Origin: Algicola sagamiensis DSM 14643
GTDB taxonomy: Bacteria > Pseudomonadota > Gammaproteobacteria > Enterobacterales > Alteromonadaceae
Length of the DNA stretch: 64,000 nt
Direction: 5' to 3'
Assembly: GCF_000374485.1 (NCBI RefSeq)
Contig: NZ_KB894498.1
Span: 27,199-91,198 of the forward strand
Shown piece by piece: positions 36,901 to 39,900 of this stretch (the stretch's first letter is position 1; every line of letters begins with the position of its first letter). Position numbers: made by a program.

Positions 36901-39900
36901 CCTGGTTATGGTAAAACGACCTTAATTGAATACGTAGCCCATAAACTTGGTCTGGTGTTTATGAAAATCAATGGTCCATCGCTTGGACATGAAGTCACCT
37001 CACTTGACCCAAATGATGCGCCGGATCAAAATGCGGCAAGAGAGGTAGAAAAGCTCAATCTAGCACTAGAAATGGGTAACAATGTCCTGCTTTATATCGA
37101 TGATATTCAGCACACAAGCGCAGAGTTTCTGCAAAAATTTATCTCACTATGTGACGGCACACGAAGAATCGAAGGCTCGTGGAAAGGCGAAACCAAAACC
37201 TACGACATGCGCAGTAAGAAGTTTGCGGTTGTCATGGCGGGTAACCCTTATACCGAATCAGGCGAAGTATTCAAGATACCCGATATGTTGGCAAACCGTG
37301 CTGATATTTATAATCTCGGGGATATGCTCTCCGATCAAGCCGATGCGTTTGCAATGTCCTTCATCGAAAACTCGCTGACATCAAGTCCAGTTCTTGCTCA
37401 AATGTCAACACGCGATCTGAACGATCTTTATCGCCTTATCGCAATGGCTCAAGGAGAAAATGTCCCGCTTACTGATTTATCTTATCCATATGCCGCTGCG
37501 GAAGTGAATGAGATCACCGCAACTTTGGAGAAACTCTTAAAGATCCAAAAGACTGTCCTCAAAGTGAATCAACAATACATCGCTTCTTCTGCCACTGCAG
37601 ATGAATACCGAGTGGAACCACCGTTTAAGTTGCAAGGCTCTTACCGGAACATGAATAAACTGACAGAAAAAGTGTCAGCAGTCATGACCAATGAGGAGCT
37701 TAATACACTCATTACGGATCATTATCAAGGTGAAGCGCAAACGCTGACATCCGGTACAGAAGAGAATCTGCTCAAACTTGCTGATATTCGTGGTGATATG
37801 ACACCTGCTCAACAGGAACGTTGGCAGGAAATTAAGGAACGATATAGCCGAAAACAGCAGCTGGGAGATGATGACGACCGAGCAGGTCAGATGGTCAACC
37901 AAATGATCCATCTCAACCAATACGTAGGTCGCGCAGTCAAACGCCTAGAAAATATCAAACGGATGAGTGTGAGATCACCAAGTAAAACCTCACCTGAAGT
38001 GAAAAAGCATACAGTGAAACCTGGAAAAACGGTTTTGAAACAACAAAAAAGCAAAACCAGTTCACAAAAAACATCTTAATTGTTGAAAAGAACCTTCTAA
38101 AAAGGCCACTTCCCTGTGGCCTTGCTTCTCCAAGATGAAAAAAGTCTCAATAAAGATCACTCACCGATTAAAGCACGGCCTATCATCGCGCTTGAATACA
38201 TGACGCGTGATGGACCAAATGCACGTGTTGGTTTCCATACATTACTTCTTGCGACCGAAGAAGATGTTTTCACTAAGCTTGGCAAGGCTCGAGTTACTCC
38301 TGATTTTGGTGCAACTGCTTGACCATTCCTGGCTAATTCAATGACCTGCTTTCCGGTTTGGTTTGCTAAATTCTGTGCATAAGAATTCGAAAACCAGGTT
38401 GAGCCTTTAAATAGAGCTGCTCCCCCTTTGCCACTGATGGCAATACGCTGAAAGGGCATTTGCCCATTAAATGCTTGATTCAATGTCCTCGCAACAAACT
38501 TCGGGTGATAGTGAGCAACACTTGATGTTACCCTTAATGTTGTTTGGCCCGATCCTGAAGCAGATGACATCAGACTTGGATTTAAACTTCCTCGAAAGGA
38601 AGCTTGCGCGGCCGCCGTCACTCTAGCACCAGCCACCAGCGAGCCAATACCAGTCACAGCGGAAGCGATACCAAATGCTAGTGCCGCGTAGCCTAAATTC
38701 GCAGAAGCTTCCGGGTTTGATCCAGATACAGCTCCAGATGCAATTCCCAAAGCACCACTGACCGTCCCCGTAACACCAGCTGTTACAACTAAACCGGCCT
38801 TGATTGCCGCTGCCGTCGACATAGCAACCGCGCCAGAAATCAATCCCGCAGATGCTGCAATCCCTGATCCGAGTGTGACGACACCAATCAGTACTGCAAG
38901 AATGCCAAGACCAATTGCGACACCAGCCTGCCAACTTAAATGGCCCGTTGGATCAACAAGATTCACAGGATCGCCTAGGCAGTATTGATACCCATGGACA
39001 CCACCTTCCTTAAATGGACTCAGACTATCTATTTCGAGAAAACGCTTGAGCCGCGGGTGATATGCGCGATAGCCTTCTCCTAAGTGATACAAGCCCGTGA
39101 CGTGATCTTGCACTGCACCCGAAAAGCAGAGTGGATTTTTAAAAATATACATACCTTGAGTACCATTTTCCGCCAAAGAGAACAATGCAGCACTCGTTGG
39201 CATACTGGTACTGATCAAAGCACCCGCTGTTGCCAGCCAGGATGATTTCACGAGAAACTTTCTGCGAGATAAATCTGGTTTGTTTTCAACGGTTGTTCGT
39301 TGATAAACTGCTTGTTTTTTATCAATCACCATGATTAATACTCATTATCACGAACACCGAAATCATCCCAGTCCAGATCGTCATCTGTGTTGTGATCAAT
39401 CAGTTTTAAGTGAACCGAGTTTCCGTACTGATCAAAGACACGAAACTTTTGACGGAAATCATATCGATAGGAATCATCAGAGGTGGTATTCACATAGTGG
39501 CCATCTTGTTTGATTCGGCTACATATATTTCTAGAACCAACACGTGAGCAATGACGCCAATCATCGTAGGTCCCCTTCCCTTGAACAAATTTCACATTGT
39601 CAGTCGATAGAGGGAGGTCAAAGTGGTAATCTTCACGACCTTCTCCTTCGATGTTCCAGATACGAACATAGTCTTTGATAGTTTGACGCTGCACAGAAGG
39701 TTTATAGGGATAAAGGACGAGAGATTTCGCTACTCTACCTCGATTGATAATTGAGTGAAATCCACCGCCAGGACGAAAATAATCCACCGCTCTAAAAGAA
39801 TGTGTTGCTTCTTGTAATGGGTTGTCCCACTCTAGGCCATATACCTTGACATTGTTATCCTTCGGGGTCAGTTGCCAATATCCCACATACCATGTGTCTT

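Follow-up and report, generated by a model that had tools for sequence, protein, structure and literature searches.

Toxins of the Rhs/YD type are known to leave the cell on the spikes of type VI secretion systems (T6SS), in Tc complexes released by lysis, or behind Sec signals on Gram-positive cell-wall proteins. The locus described here raises the question of whether twin-arginine translocation (Tat) may be a further exit. It lies in a stretch of 64,000 nucleotides from Algicola sagamiensis DSM 14643 (contig NZ_KB894498.1, positions 27,199 to 91,198), referred to in its whole length as the window, where positions 39183-39332 encode residues 1-50 of a 391-residue Rhs plug-toxin protein. Three co-directional minus-strand genes, translated from the window, form one unit and encode a shell of 1243 residues, an accessory protein of 410 residues and the plug-toxin. 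Our reading, to which we give a probability of about 0.6, is that the first ~49 residues of the plug-toxin would be a cleavable Tat signal borne by one subunit of a split Rhs system of three genes, and that the cocoon would be co-exported by Tat. Judged from the sequence, the N-terminal Tat signal itself is well supported; the co-export of the loaded cocoon we infer.

The three genes and the parts of the plug-toxin are as follows.

38157..39332, minus strand: plug-toxin gene with the predicted Tat signal, 391 residues (translation)
39335..40567, minus strand: accessory gene, 410 residues (translation; homologues in nearly all split loci)
40743..44474, minus strand: Rhs/YD-repeat shell gene, 1243 residues (PF05593, E=3.2e-34; TIGR01643, E=3.2e-17)
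39186..39332, minus strand: predicted Tat signal peptide, residues 1-49 (motif, TIGR01409, conservation, family layout and negative control)
38940..39185, minus strand: short linker and Rhs C-terminal plug/aspartyl-protease core, residues 50-131 (TIGR03696; invariant D102 and D127)
38613..38939, minus strand: Gly/Ala-rich hydrophobic helical region, residues 132-240 (composition; conserved in split and unsplit relatives)
38157..38612, minus strand: variable C-terminal toxin domain, residues 241-391 and stop (without Pfam or PDB match; tips vary)

The predicted twin-arginine signal

The N-terminus of the plug-toxin is laid out as an n-region (residues 1-22), the motif S-R-R-K-F-L-V-K (22-29), an h-region (~30-44) and the c-region P-T-S-A-A (45-49). 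The 22-residue n-region is polar. The twin arginines (R23 and R24, codons at 39261-39266) are part of L-S-R23-R24-K-F-L-V-K, which fits both the TatP regular expression RR.[FGAVML][LITMVF] and the [ST]-R-R-x-F-L-K consensus. After the motif come 25 uncharged residues rich in Ala, Ser, Thr, Gly and Leu (mean Kyte-Doolittle value 1.02), longer than the ~13 moderately hydrophobic residues that a Tat h-region needs, and the c-region P45-T-S-A-A49 offers a site of the A-x-A type (T-S-A↓A or S-A-A↓L) with no basic residue. The N-terminal 60 residues match the NCBIfam model TIGR01409 (TAT_signal_seq) with 16.8 bits (E=0.006; the curated, trusted cut-off is 16.7 bits) and also TIGR02811 (formate_TAT). 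Both of these models are from NCBIfam; the Pfam scan gave no Tat-signal match for any N-terminus of the family.

The preliminary description of this stretch had remarked on an N-terminus unrelated to Rhs, with a near-consensus Tat motif, an h-region and an AxA-like site. The translation, the TatP expression and TIGR01409 all agree with it, and a predictor's non-Tat verdict, which would have spoken against it, did not come, the Tat profile scoring the region at its trusted cut-off. The start codon is forced: with an in-frame TGA 4 codons upstream, ATG (codon 1) and GTG (codon 2) are the sole possible starts ahead of the twin arginines. The internal starts considered earlier, M44 and M61, are not conserved in homologues while the twin-arginine region is, which together with the forced start argues against them. 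The TAA of the upstream gene ends 2 nucleotides before the ATG of the plug-toxin (TAA-TC-ATG), a spacing that suggests translational coupling between the two.

Conservation of the signal

Homologues of the plug-toxin are stand-alone proteins of 330-440 residues in Spartinivicinus, Zooshikella, Aeromonas, Vibrio, Algicola and metagenomes. Fourteen of them, with an overall identity of 28-58% to the window protein, were aligned; R23, R24, F26 and S31 are invariant in all, and the n-region ahead of them varies freely. Across all aligned N-termini of the family the arginine pair is invariant, and Phe at +2 is invariant or nearly so. The uncharged stretch measures 17-30 residues in the homologues, and their c-regions often combine K/R(/H) with an A-x-A site (GRALA↓G, ALA↓G, VKA↓A, AQA↓G, LRA↓A).

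An exhaustive profile search covering 1.84 billion cluster representatives returned, among the matches listed, 127 short proteins (<550 residues). The Tat layout was defined as RR-x-F/L-[LIM] with 12 or more uncharged residues in a row behind it, usually with Pro/Gly and then A-x-A. Among the same matches it is present ahead of the Rhs core in ~32 clusters at the 50% identity level (35 by script, less 3 false positives in a G-E-R-R-D core), and always in front of the core. The remark in the preliminary description that Rhs C-terminal fragments usually have no export signal holds as well: 92 of the 127 short relatives among the matches listed are signal-less.

When 24 N-termini of the family were compared with profile models, nine matched TIGR01409 at E<=1. 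The other families matched were formate_TAT, PaoA (by one N-terminus, through its signal region), the small subunit of methylamine dehydrogenase and phosphocholine phospholipase C (PC-PLC), all known Tat substrates, and, in one weak match, fructose-bisphosphate aldolase. As controls, 24 N-termini were taken from orphan Rhs tips without a signal in the same clade, and none of them matched any Tat model.

Between Zooshikella harenae and Zooshikella sp. RANM57 the signal region differs by 3 synonymous and 0 non-synonymous changes. In the comparison with Z. ganghwensis, identity covers the 22 residues that run from P-C-L-S-R-R through the end of the h-region, and the n-region has diverged. The conserved arginine pair, the lack of conservation of the internal Met and the synonymous-only substitutions show the segment to be under selection as protein.

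Some members (P0031, P0037 and P0008) have degenerate or truncated signals: S-R-H-R-F-I, L-W-R-S-F-M in a 173-residue fragment, or an annotated start inside the h-region. These are probably decaying copies or miscalled starts.

The split of the Rhs gene

The shell begins directly at the N-plug motif …N-A-F-H-F-S-E-H-L-S-G-N-V-D-P-R-T-G… and ends with ...A-Y-Q-P-Y-G-K-V-S-K-P. Pfam and the translation reveal no signal peptide, PAAR, VgrG-binding or other trafficking domain in it, and there is no T6SS gene among the open reading frames (ORFs) of the window that were scanned; within this scope the check proposed earlier, for a secretion signal or T6SS partners of the shell, came back empty. The 12 split shells examined are all without any signal, and all adjoin a plug-toxin gene.

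The pair was compared by BLAST with single-chain Rhs proteins of 1630-1780 residues from Pseudomonas, Xenorhabdus, Kluyvera, Symbiopectobacterium, Streptomyces and Kitasatospora. Residues 2-1238 of the shell are collinear with residues 6-1286 of the single chain, and residues 70-218 of the plug-toxin with residues 1300-1429, so that the gene has been cut in a ~13-residue linker between Y-x-P-Y-G and G-F-N-G-E. Where the split shells examined have no C-terminal extension, they all end 2-13 residues past Y-x-P-[YF]-G.

Two Aeromonas shells run past Y-x-P-Y-G into a repeat extension. In Aeromonas salmonicida it consists of four C-terminal repeats of ~54 residues each (YYWSDGSYS…WPxGKxL), and the same repeats make up the N-terminal domain of the Sec-exported accessory of Aeromonas; weaker copies occur in a second neighbour with a Sec signal (528 residues). 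The repeat regions lie at ~7150-7928 and ~8064-8900 in one locus (L005) and at ~3900-4666 and ~4805-5700 in the other (L041). The repeats have no Pfam match and may form a 4-bladed binding domain.

The shell and the Tat-plug-toxin genes are adjacent in all 13 distinct loci with enough flanking sequence, and their arrangement varies. The order shell, accessory, plug-toxin is found in the window, a metagenome contig from ENA, Spartinivicinus, three Zooshikella genomes and Aeromonas. The plug-toxin gene follows the shell directly, 4-5 nucleotides apart, in two loci (L040, L045), precedes it in two others (L043, L044), and is divergently transcribed from it in one (L042). With adjacency kept while order and orientation change, a frameshift is excluded, as are an insertion scar and an ordinary orphan tip. 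The 391-residue protein had been called a Rhs C-terminal fragment, and the Rhs core and toxin are indeed there; it is not an orphan fragment, but a subunit of a conserved split Rhs. Behind a single shell and accessory, one Aeromonas contig (L041) has two Tat-plug-toxin genes in tandem (7811-8881 and 9270-10391; 356 and 373 residues), whose signal and plug regions are near-identical and whose C-terminal tips differ. It resembles an orphan-tip array in which each module keeps its own export signal.

Some loci depart from the general picture. In Vibrio aestuarianus (L002; 5258-8342 and 8359-10014) insertions of IS66-family and DDE transposases have reduced the shell to 551 residues, with the downstream Tat-plug-toxin and an accessory-like gene intact; this copy may be inactive. 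An Algicola metagenome-assembled genome (L009, 6030-9943) has the shell as two ORFs, of 1186 residues and a 105-residue tail ending E-Y-S-A-Y-G-E…, just before the Tat-plug-toxin, which is a frameshift or assembly error; no accessory lies within 10 kb. About 4 kb upstream of another split locus (L040, 1-2437) a protein of >1370 residues with an eCIS_core domain (PF13699) is encoded, and PIN/antitoxin and ParE/Phd pairs follow downstream, suggesting a toxin-rich island. Genes of the SBP_bac_3 family near several loci were considered as a linked component and rejected, their presence being inconsistent.

Plug, protease and toxin

Residues 64-131 of the plug-toxin match the Rhs-associated core (TIGR03696, Rhs_assc_core, E=7.8e-17). 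The plug core ends D-P-T-G-H, the expected self-cleavage site, and the two protease aspartates, D102 and D127, are invariant in the homologues. In the T6SS effector Tse5 the C-terminal plug is a domain of ~77 residues with a DPXGX18-19DPXG aspartyl protease, which cuts just after the second motif (PMC10684867). The motif in the window protein, D-S-L-S-X21-D-P-T-G, is a variant of it, and a profile search against PDB sequences gave a weak match of the core to the Tse5 chain 8cp6_B. Residues ~55-131 correspond to the Tse5 C-plug domain, and the second gene therefore comprises a signal, a complete C-plug and a toxin.

The toxin begins here: of the next 114 residues (132-245), 20 are Gly, 29 are Ala and no more than 3 are charged, and small-xxx-small motifs number 35. 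AlphaFold2 (AF2) models three long helices for residues 134-246 at low confidence; the predicted local distance difference test score (pLDDT) of the plug-toxin model is 53. The Gly/Ala-rich module is conserved in both split and unsplit members of the clade, and is probably a membrane-insertion or translocation module common to it. The variable toxin domain (residues 241-391) has no match in Pfam or PDB. Only Spartinivicinus, Zooshikella and a single Vibrio vulnificus protein have the same tip, and other family members differ in theirs, e.g. Tox-HDC. By calculation the shell weighs 142.5 kDa and the mature plug-toxin 34.8 kDa, which adds up to ~177 kDa.

The accessory protein

The 410-residue accessory has a Sec-type signal (cleavage predicted after V-L-A28), a conserved N-terminal domain that we call 'YANGxMQ', and a Cys176/Cys190 pair. 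It is the third component of the split system, predicted to be exported by Sec. Full-length homologues are present in nearly all split loci, between the two other genes, upstream or downstream of them, or on the other strand, and in split systems 11 of 11 accessories have a Sec signal and the invariant Cys pair.

Hidden Markov model (HMM) searches also recover distant homologues of the accessory that immediately adjoin unsplit Rhs genes of Pseudomonas, Xenorhabdus, Kluyvera, Arsenophonus, Paraburkholderia, Herbaspirillum and Kitasatospora (loci L010, L015, L021, L022, L023, L027, L034 and L037). There, seven of 11 accessory ORFs leave no room for a signal peptide and the other four (one Pseudomonas, three Herbaspirillum) have an ambiguous upstream hydrophobic stretch; Cys is found at the C176 position in 0 of 9 and at the C190 position in 1 of 9. 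The accessory and the unsplit Rhs look like an unannotated but widespread two-gene Rhs module. The joint occurrence of the split Rhs with its Tat signal, the Sec signal of the accessory and its Cys pair is the signature of a move from cytoplasm to periplasm.

No homologue of the accessory has a Pfam match, and the profile search against PDB sequences gave none for the accessory. The AF2 model, from a 4-sequence alignment, has a mean pLDDT of 28, and a repeat of the word-indexed search with the alignment of the accessory brought in only two further proteins. An immunity function was considered for the accessory and rejected: its conserved domains persist across toxin tips, Tox-HDC included, and also beside unsplit Rhs. 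The cysteine content of the shell was likewise tried as a marker of the compartment and does not discriminate (1.6-15 per 1000 residues in split, 0.8-10 in unsplit systems).

Proposed export and its alternatives

With D102 and D127 conserved, self-cleavage should part the toxin from the plug that bears the signal. Since the signal stays on the plug after the cut, the toxin would follow across the membrane only if it is enclosed by the shell. The proposed sequence of events, modeled on Rhs architecture, is that the plug-toxin subunit would dock on the shell in the cytoplasm and complete the barrel. The closed cocoon would surround and shield the hydrophobic toxin, which would then be cut at D-P-T-G-H, and the Tat translocase would carry the folded ~177-kDa complex out on the 'hitchhiker' principle. 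The signal would then be trimmed by signal peptidase, and in the periplasm, from which T2SS, vesicles or lysis may lead further, the disulfide-bonded accessory would meet the particle and may mediate release or target binding. With the signal on the cargo-bearing subunit only loaded shells would leave the cytoplasm, and one shell could serve several interchangeable Tat-plug-toxin genes. Two sequence features of Tat hitchhiking are present, namely a signal on one subunit only and a signal-less partner encoded next to it. The plug-toxin had earlier been pictured as possibly joining a shell in the periplasm; this is unlikely as stated, because no shell of the family has a signal, and co-export of a pre-assembled cocoon fits better. 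The fuller scheme is tentative, at slightly less than even odds: that the loaded ~177-kDa cocoon hitchhikes through Tat as a T6SS-independent route, and that the system is a branch of a hitherto unrecognised Rhs and 'YANGxMQ' module with cytoplasmic (unsplit, signal-less) and periplasmic (split, Tat/Sec, disulfide) forms.

Several points weigh against export of the cocoon by Tat. The main physical objection is size, as 177 kDa exceeds the largest Tat cargoes known to us (~140-150 kDa, ~70 Å). The N-terminus of the plug may or may not be exposed on the assembled cocoon. The window signal is not an ideal one: its TIGR01409 score is at threshold only, with a thin margin, its c-region is without the basic 'Sec-avoidance' residue present in most homologues, and 15 of the 24 family N-termini have no TIGR01409 match at E<=1. 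The correlation of split gene, Tat signal, Sec signal and Cys pair may reflect one or few evolutionary events. In a neighbor-joining tree of the core region, 23 of the 27 Tat-bearing members fall to the same side of a split; the tree is not robust, and the single-clade status of the Tat-bearing proteins is not cleanly resolved by it. The shell of the window has 18 Cys, and, as said, cysteine content does not tell the two forms apart. No T6SS, type II secretion system or tat genes are among the window ORFs scanned. Finally, no immunity gene follows the toxin gene, which is separated by 77 nucleotides from a converging gene for a 1671-residue protein.

The size objection would vanish if the signal is a real Tat signal but the plug-toxin is exported alone, with the shell kept in the cytoplasm as a holdase or assembly scaffold or leaving otherwise, e.g. 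by lysis. Only the plug-toxin has the signal, and a 35-kDa cargo is comfortably within the Tat range, whereas transport of 177 kDa is not proven possible. We nevertheless consider this unlikely. The plug is integral to the cocoon and keeps its protease aspartates, so that self-cleavage would part the toxin from the signal, and an unshielded hydrophobic region of ~110 residues is a poor soluble Tat passenger. Moreover, the shells are kept intact and adjacent through the changes of gene order, and both the Sec-exported accessory and the repeats that Aeromonas shells share with Sec proteins point to a shell outside the cytoplasm. It is improbable, too, that the twin-arginine segment stays uncleaved as a Rieske-type, Tat-inserted signal-anchor tethering the plug and its bound partners to the inner membrane. 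Such an anchor would suit the long uncharged stretch, the single continuous helix that AF2 draws at low confidence through residues 23-53, and the weak QcrA_N match of one homologue. It is at odds with the helix-breaking Pro/Gly and the A-x-A that most members have at a constant distance from the arginine pair, and an h-region with a mean Kyte-Doolittle value of ~1 is weak for a stable anchor.

That the segment is an ordinary Sec signal, in which the arginines are incidental n-region charges, has a low probability. Sec and Tat signals share a tripartite layout, and the threshold score and the non-basic c-region named above would fit this case as well. Incidental charges would hardly be invariant, with a nearly invariant Phe at +2, in an n-region otherwise free to vary, and the HMM matches are mostly to Tat-signal families. 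The same operon provides an internal comparison, the accessory having a plainly different, Sec-type signal; the best 13-residue hydrophobicity window is 1.65 there and only 1.16 in the plug-toxin signal. A Rhs plug with an autoprotease is, in addition, expected to fold with its shell before export. Least credible of all, with hardly any weight left to it, is an artefact, either a chance motif in an untranslated leader or an orphan tip decaying after the 410-residue gene was inserted into rhs. Orphan tips are common in Rhs loci, the majority of the short relatives being signal-less, and the 410-residue gene does lie between shell and tip in the window. But the segment is conserved as protein in Vibrio, Aeromonas, Algicola and metagenomes, close species differ by synonymous substitutions only, the start codon is forced, and there are loci without an intervening gene or with reversed or divergent order.

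Comparison with known systems

The T6SS Rhs effectors Tse5 of P. aeruginosa, RhsA of P. protegens and Rhs1 of Photorhabdus are, like the present system, YD-repeat barrels closed by N- and C-plugs, in which an aspartyl-protease C-plug releases the encapsulated toxin (PMC10684867). Each of them is one polypeptide that carries a PAAR/VgrG-related trafficking region at its N-terminus and needs a T6SS. In the window, by contrast, the N-plug is where the shell begins, C-plug and toxin have a gene of their own with a predicted Tat signal, and no PAAR, VgrG or T6SS is nearby. The membrane-active, pore-forming toxin of Tse5 resembles the Gly/Ala-rich module of the window protein. Two classical Rhs features are thus present, the YD-repeat shell and a core with two catalytic Asp before a variable toxin. 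Three are absent: the single polypeptide (the shell is at 40743-44474, core and toxin at 38157-39332, with the third gene between), the N-terminal trafficking domain and the downstream immunity gene.

The TcB-TcC pair of Tc toxins is a YD-repeat cocoon made of two polypeptides, with core and toxin on the second, and is a precedent for assembly in trans. TcC supplies much of the shell, so the split point differs from that described here. Signal peptides are not known for Tc components, which leave the cell through lysis-type systems. In the three window proteins Pfam and NCBIfam gave no sign of SpvB/TcB mid-domains or of a beta-propeller, and the window has no TcA-sized gene.

Tat is able to export folded hetero-oligomers with the signal on one subunit, as in HybOC and DmsAB. 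PaoABC is a Tat 'hitchhiker' complex of this kind; in such complexes one subunit has the twin-arginine signal, and signal-less partners encoded beside it are exported with it in folded form (PMC4273604; PMC10924467). HybO-HybC, DmsA-DmsB and PaoABC are cofactor-containing redox enzymes of at most ~145 kDa, whereas the cargo proposed here would be a cofactor-less toxin container of 177 kDa.

Gram-positive WapA and the bacterial teneurin-like proteins share with the window system YD shells that are exported by general pathways and not by T6SS. The teneurin-like proteins offer the nearest precedent: according to a figure legend of a 2026 paper, full-length proteins are coloured by predicted SEC/SPI, SEC/SPII or TAT/SPI signals, some of them as TAT/SPI (PMC13018210). 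The signal in both groups is at the N-terminus of the whole single chain; a split gene, a signal on a plug-toxin or an accessory of this type is not described there. The clade itself has unsplit members (~1630-1780-residue Rhs of Pseudomonas, Xenorhabdus, Kluyvera, Streptomyces and Kitasatospora). They have the same N-plug start, shell, D-P-[ST]-G-H-L-S-W-Q-A junction, Gly/Ala module and adjacent accessory homologue, and differ in being single-chain, with a signal-less Rhs and an accessory that has no Cys pair and mostly no room for a signal. No description of a split Rhs with a Tat signal on the plug-toxin was found in the literature searched on Rhs/YD/Tc toxins and Tat. The parts (Rhs shell, plug, protease, Tat and Sec signals) are known, and their arrangement here is not.

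If true, a two-piece Rhs exported by Tat would be a new delivery route that tests the Tat size limit. It would be among the largest Tat cargoes known, and a kind of toxin cargo for which this pathway, otherwise known mainly for cofactor enzymes, has no known example. The split design suggests an engineering principle of one shell with exchangeable cassettes of signal, plug and cargo, and the Aeromonas locus already bears two cassettes behind one shell. The contrast between split systems (Tat and Sec signals, disulfide pair) and unsplit ones (no Tat signal or Cys pair, mostly no Sec signal) makes the hypothesis directly testable. The hosts of split systems are Zooshikella, Spartinivicinus, Aeromonas, Vibrio aestuarianus and Algicola. 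The toxin may have a eukaryotic target, as no immunity gene is evident and the hosts are aquatic and often animal-associated; in related loci, too, no conserved gene lies downstream of the toxin.

Surroundings of the locus

The window is unremarkable chromosomal DNA of a diderm gammaproteobacterium, with lptD-surA-pdxA-ksgA, dnaK, carB and obg. Its G+C content is 43% and that of the operon 42-48%; recent horizontal transfer of the operon was considered, and base composition gives no sign of it. The promoter and terminator scan gave fewer sites than shuffled controls did.

Just upstream of the shell (44813-45412, minus strand) a gene encodes a 199-residue protein in which a DM9 repeat is recognized (PF11901, E=6.9e-7) and which bears a Sec signal (MMKKLTLISILMAGGFASNAMA↓A). 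The gene is separated from the shell gene by a hairpin and ~340 nucleotides of AT-rich DNA. The same DM9 gene stands ahead of the shell in a metagenome contig (L046), and its product may be either an additional, lectin-like component or a neighbour with no relation to the system.

On the other side, at 30963-38079 on the plus strand, are the genes for a 691-residue Glu/Ala-rich coiled-coil protein with an N-terminal membrane segment and for the 1671-residue protein already mentioned, which has DUF3686 ('ATPase involved in DNA repair'), DUF7902 and AAA domains. This pair, which converges on the toxin gene with 77 nucleotides between the stop codons, may be a separate two-gene system.

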